Positions 35,878-41,847 of a stretch of 64,000 bases of DNA are shown here, piece after piece. Below the pieces are notes generated by a model. That model did not search any database. It was not told where the DNA came from and worked only from the letters and a program-made list of their open reading frames with translations. The position numbers and the translations under genes are program-made. Origin of the DNA: Escherichia coli (lineage in GTDB: Bacteria > Pseudomonadota > Gammaproteobacteria > Enterobacterales > Enterobacteriaceae); NCBI RefSeq assembly GCF_030013595.1, contig NZ_CP122768.1. The stretch is one strand, 5' to 3'. Position 1 is the first letter of the stretch; every line of letters begins with the position of its first letter.

Positions 35878-36273
35878 GTGGCAAAAGTTTTTACACAGGA
35901 AGAGCGGGAAAAAATTAAAGAGCAGGTGGTCGAACTTGTGCGCCAGAGCGGTCGCGAGACATTACGACAGTTGGAAGCTAAAACAGGTGCGACAAGATAT
36001 CTGATGAGCATTCTTGCCAGAGAGCTGGTTGCCAGTGGTTATGTATACAACTCCGGCTACGGGTTATTCCCGTCTGAACAGGCACGAAAGGACTGGCAAA
36101 ATGCCCGCAAAAAACTCTCTAGGGCGAAGGTGAAGAAACCCGCTGTGGTTGATCCGGACCTTATCTGGTCACTACCTGATGGAGAAATACGTCGCTACGA
36201 CAGTCGTCTAAACATAATCTGTCGCGAGTGCCGGAAGAGCGAAGTTATGCAGCGCATATTGTCGTTTTATTAG
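35878..36273 (+). CDS. Hypothetical 131-aa protein downstream of the replication gene
   Basis: GTG start after AAGGAGGA. Basic protein with C-terminal CRECRK. Confidence 0.5.
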   Translation: MAKVFTQEEREKIKEQVVELVRQSGRETLRQLEAKTGATRYLMSILARELVASGYVYNSGYGLFPSEQARKDWQNARKKLSRAKVKKPAVVDPDLIWSLPDGEIRRYDSRLNIICRECRKSEVMQRILSFY

Positions 36274-36615
36274 GGAAATGTTCGGTATCTATTTAAGTGA
36301 CGAGATTAAAGTGCATTAGTTAAGATGTAAATTGACATTTTCATGGCATAGGGTAGAGGTAGCGTGGTTGTCTGCTTTGTGCCATGAACTGATGTCGCTT
36401 GTGTGCGTGGCAATTAGTGTATAACGGATATCATCAGACTCCAGCAGTAGCATTGCTTGAGCATACTAACATATGAAATCTTTAGTTAACGTAAGATAAA
36501 TTAGATTTAGTTTTTTTGAGTATGAGCTCATAAATAATCAAAAAAACTTGATACGCCATATGACTTTGATTTATTTTGGGAAAATATAAAGGTAATGTAA
36601 TGTAAAGAGGAAAAT

Positions 36616-38103
36616 GTGGACATTAGAGACTGGCTACCAGAATTTCAAGTTTCAGCAGAAACAGATCGGGACTTACAGACCTATTTTTTTAAGCTACCGG
36701 CGATAAAGGATATTATTGAAAGTAGGGCTTGGTTGGTTCTTGGAAGAAAAGGTACTGGTAAAACAGCCATTTATGAACACCTTAGAAGAGGAAAACCAGC
36801 CAATCTCAACGGGTTTTACTCAGTATGTCTAAATTTTAGTGACTATCCATGGCCAGCCCATCAACTTTACAAGGATGCAATGGCTGGAGAACTTTCCGCT
36901 TATCAAAAAAGTTGGATGTATCTTTTTTATATTAAGGCATTATCTAAACTTATTGAAATAAAAAATGATGCTGGAGAGACTTTAAACAAAGATCTAACGT
37001 GGGCACATAATTATATCAAAACTATCTTTGGTAGTCCCGACCCAACTCTTAGGGAGGTTTTGTTTTCAAAAATAACCAGATTAAAAACCATAAAAGGGCC
37101 CAGTGCTGGTCTTAATGAAGTATCATTGGACGCAGGTGAAATTTCGTTAGAGGAAGTTGCTGAGAATGCTCAGCTAAAGCAAAAGCTAAGAGCTAATGCT
37201 TTCACATTGCTTACGTATTTTGAAAAAATTTTTAAAGATAACATTGGTAATGAAAAAATAATTATCGCCCTTGACCAATTAGACGAAAACTGGCTAGAGG
37301 GGCAAATTGAAGAATATAGTAAGGTTTTAATAAATCTGCTAAATGTCTGTAGAAACATAGCATCTGATGAACGCCTCAATGATAAATTAAAAGTCATTCC
37401 CTTCCTACGAACGGATATTTATCATTCTTTGAAATTCAATGATAAAAACAAATTATTGCAAGATAGTGCTATCATAATCTCATGGAATGAAAATAATCTA
37501 AACGATATGTATTATGAGAGGATAAAGAAATACAAACCTAATGATCTCATATTAGATGACGAAAAGGACAGATCTGGGAAAGTATTTGAGGTTTCATTCG
37601 TTAGGCAGGGGACTCCTCCATTTAAATATATATGTCGCCGTTCTTTCTTTAGGCCTAGGGATATTATTGTCTACTTCAACAAAATTAGGGCATGTCATAA
37701 AAATAATGTCTCAGGTCTTTACACTTCCAATGAGCTTTATGAAGCTGACCGTGAAGCATCTATAAGTGTGTACAATGAGGTGATTGATGAATGGTCCAAC
37801 CAATTCCCTGAAATTGAGAACTTACTAACTGTTCTTCAAACTATCCAAGTAGAAACATTCGATTTTAATGATTTCTCCGAGAAGTGCCGTAATGAATTTG
37901 CAGGTATTTCTGATGGGGTGATACGTCAATATATCAACTTCCTGTTTGATAACTCACTTATCGGACAAAAAAAACAAGGTAGATGGGAATACGTAAGTAG
38001 TTTGCCTAACTTAAAAATTAATCTACAAAATGAGTTTAGGACACATCATGCTTTAAAATACAGGTTGCATTTAATAGAAAGCAGACCGAGCCAAAATATT
38101 TAG
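36616..38103 (+). CDS. P-loop NTPase, 495 aa, AT-rich moron (candidate defence / abortive-infection gene)
   Basis: GTG start after AGAGGA. Walker A LVLGRKGTGKTAIY, Walker B KIIIALDQLDE. Codon composition is much more AT-rich than its neighbours. Confidence 0.7.
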   Translation: MDIRDWLPEFQVSAETDRDLQTYFFKLPAIKDIIESRAWLVLGRKGTGKTAIYEHLRRGKPANLNGFYSVCLNFSDYPWPAHQLYKDAMAGELSAYQKSWMYLFYIKALSKLIEIKNDAGETLNKDLTWAHNYIKTIFGSPDPTLREVLFSKITRLKTIKGPSAGLNEVSLDAGEISLEEVAENAQLKQKLRANAFTLLTYFEKIFKDNIGNEKIIIALDQLDENWLEGQIEEYSKVLINLLNVCRNIASDERLNDKLKVIPFLRTDIYHSLKFNDKNKLLQDSAIIISWNENNLNDMYYERIKKYKPNDLILDDEKDRSGKVFEVSFVRQGTPPFKYICRRSFFRPRDIIVYFNKIRACHKNNVSGLYTSNELYEADREASISVYNEVIDEWSNQFPEIENLLTVLQTIQVETFDFNDFSEKCRNEFAGISDGVIRQYINFLFDNSLIGQKKQGRWEYVSSLPNLKINLQNEFRTHHALKYRLHLIESRPSQNI

Positions 38104-38451
38104 CTTACATCCATCTCCATTAAGAAATCTTGCTATTGTTCTTATGGATCGTCTTTCTGACTGATTTCATATTGGCGAGGTAAAGGTAGTTAAGTAGAAT
38201 GGCTGCGGGTGCTTGAGGCTATCTGCCTCGGGCATGAACACCAAAGGCAGATAGAGAAAAGCCCCAGTTAACATTACGCGTCCTGCAAGACGCTTAACAT
38301 TAATCTGAGGCCAATTTCATGCTAGACACATGTAGGTTAGCCTCTTACGTGCCGAAAGGCAAGGAGAAGCAGGCTAGTGTTAACACCAAGCTGTAATGTC
38401 CCCTTTGAACCATTCTAAAATGTCCCCAGACAATTCTCTGGGGGATTTTTC

Positions 38452-39792
38452 ATGATCAAAGAGACTGTTACGATGAGTCATAAGGAACTCCACCGACTTC
38501 AGATTATTCAGGAGTCAATTAATCGACATATTACTCAGGAACAAGCTGCGGCACGCATTGGCATTTCTATTCGGCAGGTTAAACGTCTGGTGCAACGGTA
38601 TAGAAATGAAGGGCCTTCTGGTCTGGTTTCCCACCGACGTGGAAAGCGTCCTAATAATTCCTTTTCTACTGAATTCAGAGCAACAGTAATTTCACTCCTC
38701 AAAGGCCGTTACGCTGATTTTGGACCTACGTTTGCGTGCGAAAAATTGCGCGAGATACACGGTTTATCTTTATCCGTTGAAACTCTCAGAAAGTGGATGA
38801 TAGAAGAGGGGTTATGGCGTGAACGCCGTCGTAAAATTGCCCGTATATATCAACGCCGCATGCGACGACCATCTTACGGTGAACTGATCCAGATTGATGG
38901 CTCACCTCATGACTGGTTTGAAAATCGAGGCCCCAGATGTACACTGATCGTTTTCATTGATGATGCCACCAGTGCGTTGATGGCGTTGCGTTTTGTGCCT
39001 GCTGAAACAACCCGGGCTTACATGGAAACCCTCCGGGGTTACCTTAATGATCATGGCGTACCGCTCGCTCTCTACTCTGATAGACACAGTATATTCAGGG
39101 TAAATAACCCAGAGCGGGAAGGTGAGCTGACCCAGTTCACTCGTGCGATAAAGACACTGGGCATCGAGCCAATCCATGCCAACAGCCCGCAGGCAAAAGG
39201 GCGGGTAGAGCGCGCCAATCAGACACTACAGGACAGGCTGGTCAAAGAAATGCGGCTTCAGAATATCAGTGATATTGAAACAGCAAATGCATGGTTGCCG
39301 ACCTTTATTGAAGCCTATAACAACCGGTTCGCTACGTCGCCTCGTACTACTGATAATGCTCATCTTGATGAGCACCATTCTGAAGAGGAACTGGGTTATA
39401 TCTTCAGCCTACAGGCGAAGCGCGTTCTGTCTAAAAATCTCACTTTCCAGTACAAAAGCAGTGCGTTTCAGGTACGCAGTGAGGGCCGGGGATATCGACT
39501 TAGGCATTCGGTTGTTACTGTATGCGAGAACTTTGACGGTGAAATTAACGTTCTGTATGACGGGAAAGCGCTGGGCTGGGAAAAGTATGTTGATGGCCCG
39601 GAGCCTATACCACTGGATGATGAAAAGAGTGTCCATGAACGAGTGGATAATGCCCGTATTGATTTACGCTCAAAATACTATGTTAAACCTAAAGCTGACC
39701 ATCCCTGGCTTACGCGCCGAACGCAAAGTCATCAGCAAGTTAAGCCCCCGAAGTTACCTAAAAAGAAGCCTGATCCCGATAAAAAAGATTGA
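38452..39792 (+). CDS. rve (DDE integrase-core) transposase with N-terminal HTH, ISNCY/IS1202-group-like
   Basis: HTH ITQEQAAARIGISIRQVKRLVQRYRNEG, then a core with LIQIDGSPHDWF...LYSDRHSIF...AKGRVERANQTLQDRL. The IS ends are not confidently defined. Confidence 0.75.
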   Translation: MIKETVTMSHKELHRLQIIQESINRHITQEQAAARIGISIRQVKRLVQRYRNEGPSGLVSHRRGKRPNNSFSTEFRATVISLLKGRYADFGPTFACEKLREIHGLSLSVETLRKWMIEEGLWRERRRKIARIYQRRMRRPSYGELIQIDGSPHDWFENRGPRCTLIVFIDDATSALMALRFVPAETTRAYMETLRGYLNDHGVPLALYSDRHSIFRVNNPEREGELTQFTRAIKTLGIEPIHANSPQAKGRVERANQTLQDRLVKEMRLQNISDIETANAWLPTFIEAYNNRFATSPRTTDNAHLDEHHSEEELGYIFSLQAKRVLSKNLTFQYKSSAFQVRSEGRGYRLRHSVVTVCENFDGEINVLYDGKALGWEKYVDGPEPIPLDDEKSVHERVDNARIDLRSKYYVKPKADHPWLTRRTQSHQQVKPPKLPKKKPDPDKKD

Positions 39793-40228
39793 AACCAAGA
39801 TCGATTCGGTTGAGTGCATATCCATTCATAGGGTAGATTCTTAAGTCGCGTTTCTGGTGTTCATTTTCGGGTGGTTTGTTACTTGTTTTACCGGGGATAT
39901 GCCAGAAACGCGCTGAGTCAGTCTGGGCGGTGCGCGTAATGAGGCGTTATGGTAAATAGCCTATGCTAATGTCCGCTAAGAGCAAGAAGCGGAAGTTGGC
40001 AGTTTTGTGGACTGTCCCCACAAAAGTGACTACAGAAATAGTTGCAATTCATAATTGATCATGGGTTGTCAGTTAAACTCGTGGCGATTTAAATAGACTA
40101 ATTGGGAGTGCGTCCATTACTTATATCTTGTAATGTTAACTATCAGAAATGATACAAAGATAATATGTCTTTAAAGAAAAGGCTGATGGCGAAAAGTGGC
40201 CCGATGAGGGCCACAATACGGCTGTCAC

Positions 40229-40561
40229 TTAGACGTAAATATCAATGGTGCCAGCGGTATTTGTATCGTCTTTTTTCTCTTCTTTTTTATCAGGCTGAAC
40301 TGTCGCGTCTTCATTCTTTTTCTCTGCCTGCTGCCTTAACAACTGCTCCAGTTGAGCCCAGAGGCTTTCAATTTGCTTCTGTACCAATGCAGCCATTTCT
40401 TTTTTCTGCTGTGTCGTCATCCCCTCTTCCGATGAGATTTTCCCAAGCTTTTCAGTCAGCACCTGAATTTGTCTTGTGATTTTGGCTATTTCTGATGTTC
40501 CTTCCGGGGCGGAGTTGTTTGAAATAACGGTTGAGGTATTTCCCTGAATTGTGACAGACAT
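40229..40561 (-). CDS. flxA: FlxA (Qin prophage protein)
   Basis: MSVTIQGNTSTVISNNSAPEGTSEIAKITRQIQVLTEKL..., 110 aa. Confidence 0.85.
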   Translation of the reverse strand: MSVTIQGNTSTVISNNSAPEGTSEIAKITRQIQVLTEKLGKISSEEGMTTQQKKEMAALVQKQIESLWAQLEQLLRQQAEKKNEDATVQPDKKEEKKDDTNTAGTIDIYV

Positions 40562-40763
40562 AGATTTCTCCTTTTAAAAAAGCACTATCGGCATGCACAA
40601 AAAAATCTTTAATCGTATTTCTTGTGTCATTAATTGTTTGATGTTCAGATTGTTTTCCTCGCGGGCTGGCGCGCCTCAGAAAGTAAAGCTTGTTGACAGG
40701 GGTAAACGTTCGGCAATAATTTTCTGCCGCATGCGGGTGTTGCATAAAACGTGTTACGTTCCT

Positions 40764-41069
40764 TTATCGACAGGTCAGGTCACCGCTCACCCGCCGACGA
40801 GAAAGCAACACTGACATGCTAAAGCAAAAAATAGATGAATAAGTTGAGTTGTGCATATGTAGCCTGACCGTCACAAAGTATATGGTGTCTGTACCAGTAA
40901 GATGATGGCCGGACTCTTTAAAAACGAGCTGACCTGCACAATACAGGATGGACTTAGCAATGGCTGCTCCTGGCAGAAAGCGGACAGTGATCACCGTTCT
41001 TACGACTACTTTCTGACTTCCTTCGTGACTTGCCCTAAGCATGTTGTAGTGCGATACTTGTAATGACAT
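40764..41069 (-). CDS. Hypothetical 101-aa ORF in the ydfV position
   Basis: Same size and position as K-12 ydfV between flxA and relB. I cannot verify the sequence from memory. Confidence 0.35.
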   Translation of the reverse strand: MSLQVSHYNMLRASHEGSQKVVVRTVITVRFLPGAAIAKSILYCAGQLVFKESGHHLTGTDTIYFVTVRLHMHNSTYSSIFCFSMSVLLSRRRVSGDLTCR

Positions 41070-41093
41070 TTGTAATTACAAGAGGTGTAAGAC

Positions 41094-41333
41094 ATGGGTA
41101 GCATTAACCTGCGTATTGACGATGAACTTAAAGCGCGTTCTTACGCCGCGCTTGAAAAAATGGGTGTAACTCCTTCTGAAGCGCTTCGTCTCATGCTCGA
41201 GTATATCGCTGACAATGAACGCTTGCCGTTCAAACAGACACTCCTGAGTGATGAAGATGCTGAACTTGTGGAGATAGTGAAAGAACGGCTTCGTAATCCT
41301 AAGCCAGTACGTGTGACGCTGGATGAACTCTGA
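41094..41333 (+). CDS. relB: RelB antitoxin
   Basis: MGSINLRIDDELKARSYAALEKMGVTPSEALRLMLEYIADNERLPFKQ..., 79 aa. Confidence 0.93.
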   Translation: MGSINLRIDDELKARSYAALEKMGVTPSEALRLMLEYIADNERLPFKQTLLSDEDAELVEIVKERLRNPKPVRVTLDEL

Positions 41334-41620
41334 TGGCGTATTTTCTGGATTTTGACGAGCGGGCACTAAAGGAATGGCGAAAGCTGGGCTCGACGGTACG
41401 TGAACAGTTGAAAAAGAAGCTGGTTGAAGTAATTGAGTCACCCCGGATTGAAGCAAACAAGCTCCGTGGTATGCCTGATTGTTACAAGATTAAGCTCCGG
41501 TCTTCAGGCTATCGCCTTGTATACCAGGTTATAGACGAGAAAGTTGTCGTTTTCGTGATTTCTGTTGGGAAAAGAGAACGCTCGGAAGTATATAGCGAGG
41601 CGGTCAAACGCATTCTCTGA
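41333..41620 (+). CDS. relE: RelE mRNA-interferase toxin
   Basis: MAYFLDFDERALKEWRKLGSTVREQLKKKL..., 95 aa. Start overlaps the relB stop. Confidence 0.93.
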   Translation: MAYFLDFDERALKEWRKLGSTVREQLKKKLVEVIESPRIEANKLRGMPDCYKIKLRSSGYRLVYQVIDEKVVVFVISVGKRERSEVYSEAVKRIL

Positions 41621-41691
41621 ACCAAAGCATGACATCTCTGTTTCGCACCGAAGGTGACACTTCTGCTTTGCGTTGACAGGAGAAGCAGGCT

Positions 41692-41847
41692 ATGAAGCAG
41701 CAAAAGGCGATGTTAATCGCCCTGATCGTCATCTGTTTAACCGTCATAGTGACGGCACTGGTAACGAGGAAAGACCTCTGCGAGGTACGAATCCGAACCG
41801 GCCAGACGGAGGTCGCTGTCTTCACAGCTTACGAACCTGAGGAGTAA
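41692..41847 (+). CDS. hokD: HokD (RelF) Hok-family membrane toxin
   Basis: Not in the track (<60 aa). MKQQKAMLIALIVICLTVIVTALVTRKDLCEVRIRTGQTEVAVFTAYEPEE, 51 aa. Confidence 0.88.
   Translation: MKQQKAMLIALIVICLTVIVTALVTRKDLCEVRIRTGQTEVAVFTAYEPEE

Follow-up and report, generated by a model that had tools for sequence, protein, structure and literature searches.

An Sll1717-family ATPase cassette in the accessory slot of a Qin-like Escherichia coli prophage: a mobile candidate for single-gene defense

What is a solitary, AT-rich ATPase gene doing between the replication and antitermination genes of an Escherichia coli prophage? The question is raised by a stretch of 64,000 nucleotides on contig NZ_CP122768.1 (RefSeq assembly GCF_030013595.1), the whole of which we call the window, where an open reading frame (ORF) at 36616 to 38103 on the + strand opens with GTG and encodes a P-loop protein of 495 amino acids. 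An earlier note on this DNA took the gene for a candidate anti-phage or exclusion gene borne by a prophage and offered a replication accessory ATPase as the alternative. Here, we show that the gene is a self-contained, horizontally mobile single-ORF cassette that several unrelated temperate phages carry as cargo, and that its product belongs to the P-loop ATPase, Sll1717 family (NF047389). It is a credible candidate for a single-gene defense system. Taken as a whole, the explanation toward which we lean, if only by a little, is that a mobile ATPase cassette of ORC/Cdc6-STAND-like type protects the lysogen from other phages, by exclusion or by abortive infection.

The gene resides in a Qin-like lambdoid prophage, and the region matches, at 99.9% identity, E. 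coli chromosomes carrying one. The order of genes begins with int, xis, an exonuclease gene, dicB, and the genes for a DicA-like repressor, DicC, YdaT, a 321-amino-acid protein, and DUF977; it continues with the ATPase, the ISEsa1 transposase, ydfW, flxA, ydfV, and relBE (the last missing from this order in some strains) and ends with hokD, rem, ydfU, and antiterminator Q. Gene order in relatives bears out the placement of the ATPase between the replication and antitermination modules. We surveyed 5,426 complete E. coli genomes and compared the locus with four other Qin-like prophages, those of strains 6409, 2015C-4498, A3019, and OkiPb01715. The replication module that precedes the gene (YdaT, the 321-amino-acid protein, and DUF977) is present in 3,990 of the surveyed genomes. 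The ATPase coding sequence is present in 42, each copy at least 99% identical, and is intact in 38 of these carriers and shortened or split in 4. The four damaged copies (NZ_CP041433.1, NZ_CP041429.1, NZ_CP069710.1, and NZ_CM142774.1) retain 38 to 62% of the gene, which lies in two pieces in two Shiga toxin-producing strains; such copies suggest occasional inactivation.

The sister prophages hold different genes in the same slot. One carries PD-T7-1 (E = 7e-157), another carries cll and a beta protein matching PD-Lambda-2_C (2e-28 and 1e-40), and a third carries a type II/orphan methyltransferase, MTase_II (4.5e-45); the fourth, OkiPb01715, has only a block containing an insertion sequence (IS). 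Because sister prophages carry known defense genes at this position, the premise of the earlier note that the slot is a hotspot for such genes is valid for this prophage family, and the interval from DUF977 to hok/sok in Qin-like prophages is a cargo and defense hotspot. At the slot, PD-T7-1 is accompanied by an unannotated partner of 314 amino acids, cll and the beta protein by two small ORFs, and a small methyltransferase by DUF7167. Several slot neighbors match nothing in PADLOC or Pfam and are possible additional defense candidates.

The limits of the insert emerge from the same comparison. On the left, homology ends at 36283 for strains 6409 and 2015C-4498 and at 36387 for A3019; on the right, homology to Qin-like prophages with other cargo returns at 38187 to 38195. 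Given these breakpoints, the insert is a cassette of ~1.9 kb made up of leader and ATPase gene, and the whole accessory cassette, including a tail of ~85 nucleotides, occupies 36284 to 38186 (+ strand), with a guanine-plus-cytosine (GC) content of 0.34 to 0.35 against 0.47 in the flanks. The gene itself has a GC content of 0.351 and the leader 0.336, the two flanks 0.471 and 0.473, and the full window 0.499; along the DNA, the value dips to 0.29 to 0.41 over ~36300 to 38250 from about 0.47 to 0.50 around it. These figures confirm the sharp drop through the leader and the 495-amino-acid ORF that had been noticed earlier. The description of the insert as a single-gene moron stands as well, with the cassette so delimited and no neighbor conserved in the other loci described next.

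Outside E. coli, close homologs that are 62 to 89% identical and of the same length range from Proteobacteria to Bacteroidota and Patescibacteria. Their hosts include Klebsiella, Proteus, Serratia, Enterobacter, Vibrio, Shewanella, Nitrosomonas, and Sulfuricurvum, together with Arcobacteraceae, Bdellovibrionaceae, Flavobacteriia, Ignavibacteria, and Patescibacteria. GC content was lower in the ATPase gene than in its flanks at every locus checked (17 of 17). An all-against-all BLAST of the neighbors at 16 loci from many phyla revealed no conserved partner gene; the only recurrent neighbors were ClpB-like/PDC-M37B proteins (three of the 16 loci) and a second, unannotated family (four loci), and integrases occur in two of the loci. 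The leader is not conserved among distant carriers.

The phages concerned are of several kinds. In a Serratia P2-like prophage, the homolog is flanked by replication gene A on one side and ogr/portal on the other, the site of the tin/old hotspot; the P2 tin/old locus has been described as a hotspot of antiviral systems beside cos (Rousset 2022, PMC9122126). Klebsiella and IMG/VR contigs carry the homolog after the P2-like tail genes U/D, a Proteus lambdoid prophage carries it directly after the integrase, and in V. cholerae it borders a filamentous prophage (Rep_trans to Zot). IMG/VR holds 11 contigs with a homolog. In two metagenomic phage contigs from this collection (L043, 6001 to 8218; L044, 6001 to 8295), a 69%-identical ATPase gene stops one nucleotide from the stop of a convergent gene for a CI-like repressor, with genes for a CII-like activator and a primase-helicase on its other side, a position in the immunity region comparable to that of lambda rexAB. 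Mobile and defense genes in the neighborhoods of homologs comprise DRT2, PDC-S05, PDC-M37, a methyltransferase, integrases, T5orf172, RhuM, and a TacAT toxin-antitoxin pair.

Family assignment is firm. The protein matches NCBIfam NF047389 with E = 3.8e-74 and 250.4 bits, against a curated cutoff of 75, over residues 13 to 484 and profile positions 5 to 454 of 454. It is identical to RefSeq WP_000354584.1, which is named P-loop ATPase, Sll1717 family, and the GTG start at 36616 is also the one annotated by RefSeq in the records of near-identical relatives. A protein that the earlier note could not place by eye thus has a named family, and PHROGs assigns it to family 13260, function unknown. The Pfam scan gave nothing significant for the protein, with no NACHT, NB-ARC, or nSTAND match at E ≤ 1. 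Profile PF24389 (ORC-CDC6-like) was matched in relatives only, and nSTAND3 in one distant relative (2.4e-4), each under its cutoff. When 1.84 billion cluster representatives were searched with a profile, 2,457 family clusters (50% identity) were returned at E ≤ 1e-3; at E ≤ 1e-10 there were 879, nearly all of 470 to 500 amino acids and matched end to end.

Conservation was assessed in 34 close homologs and in 51 family members at 22 to 54% identity. Walker A, LVLGRKGTGKT (residues 40 to 50), and Walker B, IIIALDQLDE, are invariant across the close homologs, and G43, K45, G46, G48, K49, D220, and D223 are invariant in the wider set, so that the two motifs read by eye in the earlier note are borne out. 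In the window, the Walker A core GRKGTGKT (residues 43 to 50) lies at 36742 to 36765 and Walker B (residues 215 to 224) at 37258 to 37287, both on the + strand. The pattern is that of P-loop nucleoside triphosphatases (NTPases) of the ASCE/AAA+ type, with Walker A as GxxxxGK[ST] and Walker B as a hydrophobic strand with an acidic end, both conserved. Because the catalytic motifs are invariant family-wide, the ATPase is expected, from its sequence, to be active. Other residues invariant in the family are W100, R265, W290, R302, P347-R348, and E392, and a DKNK motif (276 to 279) and H477 are nearly so. The invariant arginines R265, R302, and R348 are the candidates for an arginine finger of the kind that ORC/Cdc6-clade proteins use in oligomer-dependent hydrolysis.

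Domain fusions among distant members give the family a context. These include an EAD7 adaptor (4e-38), a C-terminal GT4-conflict glycosyltransferase (8e-128), and N-terminal cold-shock domains. EADs have been described as small adaptors without enzymatic activity that bring effectors to NTP-dependent conflict systems (Kaur et al., PMC7159879), and their fusion to relatives places the NTPase core as the switch of conflict systems. The cold-shock fusions hint at single-stranded nucleic acid as a possible input. One distant member of 697 amino acids, P0173, has two EAD7 copies after its Walker A region, from residues ~85 to 146 onward; since its family match restarts at 280, these adaptors appear to lie inside the initial part of the NTPase domain or immediately behind it and not to be terminal.

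The earlier note had recognized no domain in the ~300 residues beyond the Walker motifs. A structural model overturns that impression. The AlphaFold2 model (predicted local distance difference test [pLDDT] score, 77; predicted template modeling score, 0.74) consists of a P-loop core, a helical insert of 135 residues between strand 2 and the Walker B strand, an AAA+ helical lid, and a C-terminal helical/winged-helix module. Its elements are a strand at residues 67 to 73, helices at 79 to 209, the Walker B strand at 214 to 220, lid helices at 292 to 359, and winged-helix strands at 449 to 476. The insert, placed at residues 76 to 210 (36841 to 37245, + strand) from DSSP assignments on the model, pLDDT, and the conservation profile, is predicted to form amphipathic helices of zero net charge that are not transmembrane, and residues 155 to 177 within it are a variable loop modeled with low confidence. 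It occupies the position of a DNA-contacting element in ORC/Cdc6, TnsC, and MuB. The C-terminal helical and winged-helix domain (~residues 400 to 490; 37813 to 38085, + strand) includes a basic wing, GQKKQGRWEY, and the near-invariant H477; net charge is +5 over residues 446 to 495 and +6 over the lid.

Foldseek placed Orc1/Cdc6, SSO1545, ORC4, BrxC, RdrA, and CED-4 among the top matches to the model, and further structural matches were to DnaA, clamp loaders, NB-ARC, Avs3, Avs5, and PAB2304. Searches of PDB sequences, started from the protein alone and from a profile of 51 sequences, gave matches at the level of the P-loop only, and no BFVD viral structure matched significantly. The hallmarks described for the ORC/Cdc6 clade are an insert that follows strand 2, a bundle of helices at the C terminus, and a winged helix (10.1101/2025.10.09.681413), and the model displays an insert at that place, a helical lid, and a winged helix. 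With its core, insert, lid, and winged helix, the protein is, as modeled, an ORC/Cdc6-STAND-like NTPase; it is close to no characterized ORC/Cdc6-STAND member.

How might such a gene serve its carrier? A defense role is argued from location and family context, and we hold it with modest confidence, at or just on the favorable side of even. The location, together with homologs at the P2 A-to-Q hotspot, agrees with the original proposal of a defense or exclusion gene, whereas membership in a validated defense family does not emerge. In the explanation that we prefer, the cassette, with its own promoter region and one ORF, has landed in the accessory hotspot between the DUF977 gene of the replication module and hok/sok. 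The protein would be an ATP-driven switch, monomeric at rest, which on an infection cue would oligomerize on nucleic acid through its helical insert and basic winged helix. The cue would probably be a nucleic-acid structure or a highly conserved component of replication or transcription rather than a fast-evolving phage protein; that the protein reads something conserved is a speculative reading of its unusual conservation across phyla. As the protein is without an enzymatic effector, the oligomer itself would act, blocking replication or transcription of phage (or cell) DNA, or it would recruit a host factor. This specific mechanism, a nucleotide-driven switch oligomerizing on nucleic acid, is speculative, and we consider it doubtful in its particulars. 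A sharper version, which we hold just as tentatively, is a minimal immune NTPase without dedicated sensor or enzymatic effector that would sense a universally conserved intermediate or component of replication and whose ATP-dependent oligomer would be a poison initiator, arresting the replication of superinfecting phage; what it senses could be, for example, a DNA fork, single-stranded DNA, or the surface of a loader or helicase. A poison initiator would explain the missing sensor and effector domains, the 62 to 72% identity between Proteobacteria, Bacteroidota, and Patescibacteria, and the cold-shock fusions.

Several observations weigh against a defense role. Pfam and the model together show no effector domain and no sensor repeats, the 495 residues being fully covered by NTPase core, insert, lid, and winged helix, which leaves no obvious way to sense or kill. 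Immune sensors normally diversify fast, and it is atypical of them to be as highly conserved from phylum to phylum as this protein is. Several chromosomal copies sit amid housekeeping genes and are without defense neighbors, and in distant genomes the neighborhoods show only scattered defense genes. Among 50,697 deposited phage genomes, there was a single distant match, in Lactococcus phage CAP (24% identity). PADLOC-DB v2.0.0 contains no model for the protein; the check proposed earlier against known systems matched none that is modeled there and returned only a weak, partial match to PDC-M28C (E = 4e-5, residues 212 to 304), and ten distant relatives run through PADLOC v2 had the same outcome, PDC-M28C only. 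WP_000354584.1 is absent from the DefensePredictor supplements. The literature searched contained no mention of the Sll1717 family or of WP_000354584.1, no function for NF047389, and no experimental phenotype for the family; it held nothing relevant on PDC-M28, on GT4-conflict, or on DUF977 with defense.

Of the competing explanations, the one that survives best, although we judge it improbable, is that the protein is a nucleotide-switch regulator, resembling MalT-type STANDs or ORC-like DNA binders in its action, of transcription or of chromosome or prophage maintenance, and that it is kept for a benefit to its carrier such as lysogeny stability or addiction. A winged helix in a protein that has no effector would suit this role, very high conservation across phyla is what would be expected of a protein acting on conserved cellular targets, and some copies do lie in housekeeping surroundings. 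However, regulators normally have a linked regulon, and the ATPase has no conserved neighbor. The lone cassette hops among unrelated phages and phyla, in several mapped cases at accessory or defense hotspots, and its relatives are fused to adaptors and effectors of conflict systems.

We find it slightly less probable again that the gene is half of a split system that is inactive alone, with an effector or sensor partner encoded elsewhere or supplied by the host. The EAD7 adaptors of distant relatives are believed to bring in effectors encoded in trans (PMC7159879), what PADLOC weakly matched is component C of a candidate system of three genes, and Avs7, which uses the host factor EF-Tu, sets a precedent (PMC13581612). 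The ATPase itself, however, has neither an EAD nor another adaptor domain, and the spread of a lone gene over phyla is hard to square with a strain-specific partner. A universally conserved host partner is possible, and such an arrangement would overlap the defense explanation that we prefer.

Very unlikely, in our estimation, is a counter-defense or phage-fitness factor that aids the carrier phage against host immunity and does not protect the lysogen. Such genes, too, are AT-rich morons in the accessory regions of phages, and several kinds of temperate phage carry this one. Yet many copies lie outside recognizable phage, and 495 amino acids with an NTPase predicted to be active are large for an anti-defense protein. 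Furthermore, the gene has stayed intact in 38 of the 42 E. coli carrier genomes even though the Qin-like prophage around it is degraded, and the place beside a CI-like repressor in the two viral contigs is that of a lysogeny region, although the two genes there are convergent and not co-transcribed.

The alternative offered from the start, that the protein serves the Qin-like prophage as a replication accessory ATPase, a helicase loader or initiator in place of a missing lambda P/DnaC-type loader, has fared a little worse still and is effectively refuted. The fold belongs with the AAA+ initiators and loaders, its structural matches including Orc1/Cdc6, DnaA, and clamp loaders, and the gene directly follows the replication module, where no DnaC-like gene is present. 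We nonetheless reject a helicase loader on distribution (42 carriers against 3,990 genomes with the same replication module, and solitary copies elsewhere) and on the absence of any match to the DnaC/IstB/P loader families in Pfam, NCBIfam, or PHROGs. Sister prophages hold unrelated cargo in the slot, the ATPase gene comes with an AT-rich leader of its own and differs sharply in GC content, and near-identical genes occur at P2-like tails, next to integrases, beside filamentous prophages, and alone in chromosomes, that is, in non-phage contexts as well.

To a TnsC/MuB/IstB-like target-selection ATPase of the neighboring IS or of another transposon we give almost no credence and reject it, since gene and IS occur independently (NRG 857C carries only the gene and OkiPb01715 only the IS), the 5' half of hok/sok separates them, and no transposase is a conserved neighbor in the 16 other loci.

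For the same reason, that each occurs without the other in those two strains, the IS beside the ATPase gene is incidental. An IS does lie downstream, as the earlier note had it, but it does not abut the gene: ~350 bp intervene before the transposase ORF and hold the 5' half of the hok/sok locus (Rfam sok, RF01794, at 38207 to 38373 with 111 bits). The transposase ORF at 38452 to 39792 encodes 446 amino acids with helix-turn-helix and rve_3 domains and belongs to ISEsa1 of the IS1202 family; RefSeq flags the equivalent gene in relatives as partial, with its C terminus missing. The hok/sok locus is split, with sok and 5' hok at 38207 to 38373, the hokD ORF from 41692, and between them a 3.3-kb block containing the ISEsa1 transposase, ydfW, flxA, ydfV, and relBE. 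A perfect 15-bp direct repeat, AGGAGAAGCAGGCTA, flanks the block at 38362 to 38376 and 41678 to 41692. NRG 857C is without the sequence of window positions 38377 to 41677, and its ATPase gene is directly followed by an intact hok/sok-hokD locus. Downstream of the cassette, relB, relE, and hokD form a toxin-antitoxin cluster at 41094 to 41847, as in K-12 Qin; with YdaT upstream and these three downstream, the interval is rich in toxin-type genes.

On the other side of the cassette, the ORF that the earlier note saw ending at 36273 is DUF977. That end is correct for the window, where a CAG-to-TAG change at 36271 to 36273 closes the ORF, but not for relatives, in which the ORF extends to 36300; the product here has 131 amino acids against 140 in near-identical E. 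coli records, a difference of nine residues. Just 3' of DUF977, at 36340 to 36388 and within the stretch shared with A3019, is an inverted repeat of 18 nucleotides (78% complementary, 13-nucleotide loop) that may be a terminator or regulatory hairpin closing the replication operon.

The AT-rich 5' leader of the ATPase gene runs from 36274 to 36615 (+ strand) and, in ORF and Rfam scans, is without a convincing ORF or Rfam match. A conserved leader RNA or small ORF was sought: Rfam gave no match, ORFs were only of chance size, and conservation stops at Proteus. The promoter-proximal 140 nucleotides (36476 to 36615, + strand) travel with the gene and are common to the Proteus copy, with blastn homology starting at 36476 and a mean identity of 80% in pairwise alignment. 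Within them, a candidate sigma-70 promoter-like site (TTGATA, an 18-nucleotide spacer, and TATTTT) lies at 36548 to 36577 on the + strand, identified by consensus match only. The number of promoter-like sites in the region was not above shuffle expectation, which makes the promoter call weak. An inverted-repeat scan found arms of 15 nucleotides, 93% complementary and separated by a 10-nucleotide gap, at 36509 to 36548 (no strand assigned), touching the -35 hexamer; the repeat may be an operator or a hairpin. The Shine-Dalgarno sequence AAGAGGA (36605 to 36611, + strand) ends 4 nucleotides before the GTG, its GAGG core (36607 to 36610) ends 5 nucleotides before, and it is kept in Proteus. It precedes the coding sequence at 36616 to 38103 for the 495-amino-acid, Sll1717-family ATPase, which the model portrays as an ORC/Cdc6-STAND-like AAA+ protein with a winged helix.

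If the defense explanation is true, a widespread family (the 2,457 clusters above) has been missed by PADLOC v2, and the system would be unusually simple, a STAND/ORC-like switch without sensor repeats or effector. The mechanistic question would then be how a winged-helix ATPase senses and stops a phage. The extreme conservation across phyla is the reverse of the usual arms-race pattern and hints at a conserved cellular or nucleic-acid target. For the Qin/Rac-type prophages, which are very common in E. coli, the interval between DUF977 and hok/sok is also added as a documented defense hotspot that can be mined for further systems.

Among known systems, the ATPase resembles, without belonging to, ORC/Cdc6 initiators, Avs-type STANDs, BrxC, and RdrA. 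The archaeal Arch_ATPase-type proteins SSO1545 (2fna) and PAB2304 (2qen) are structural matches at 11 to 16% identity, with no match at the level of sequence; at ~350 amino acids, they are without the 135-residue helical insert, and their function is likewise unknown. Orc1/Cdc6 initiators align with TM-scores of only ~0.3 to 0.36, and their profile TIGR02928 was not significant (E = 0.12). Moreover, Orc1/Cdc6 is a core gene, whereas the ATPase gene is sporadic, mobile, and unlinked to an origin or replication module. The STAND immune NTPases (Avs/AVAST, bacterial NACHT, CED-4/Apaf-1, and plant NB-ARC) have a common core of nucleotide-binding, helical, and winged-helix domains. The likeness to them lies in the structural matches to CED-4, NB-ARC, Avs3, and Avs5 and in a prophage-borne gene; the near-invariant H477 of the winged-helix region may correspond to the MHD-like histidine that contacts bound ADP in STAND proteins. 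The tripartite architecture of Avs proteins, with an N-terminal effector, an NTPase, and a C-terminal repeat sensor, is not that of the ATPase.

BrxC (BREX) and RdrA (RADAR) are ORC/Cdc6-like defense ATPases among the structural matches, and in BrxC, too, the ATPase precedes a winged helix (10.1101/2025.10.09.681413). However, these proteins have 850 to 1,300 amino acids and are obligate parts of multi-gene systems, whereas the ATPase has 495, is solitary, and has no BREX or RADAR genes nearby. PDC-M28C has a profile 480 positions long, similar to the ATPase, and the match, which spans Walker B to the sensor region, is also found in most of the distant relatives tested; PDC-M28 is nevertheless an unvalidated multi-gene candidate, and the match covers only ~90 residues at E = 4e-5. 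GiPD474, an ATPase defense protein of a Gifsy prophage, is ParA-like and unrelated. Reve, a single-gene system that comes from a P4 satellite hotspot and consists of an ATPase/KAP P-loop protein, protects E. coli (NAR 2026, PMC13586616). It is described with a KAP-family domain, and the Pfam scan gave the ATPase no KAP_NTPase (PF07693) match at E ≤ 1, so that the two are set apart by description only; what they have in common is a single-gene P-loop ATPase in a phage or satellite hotspot.

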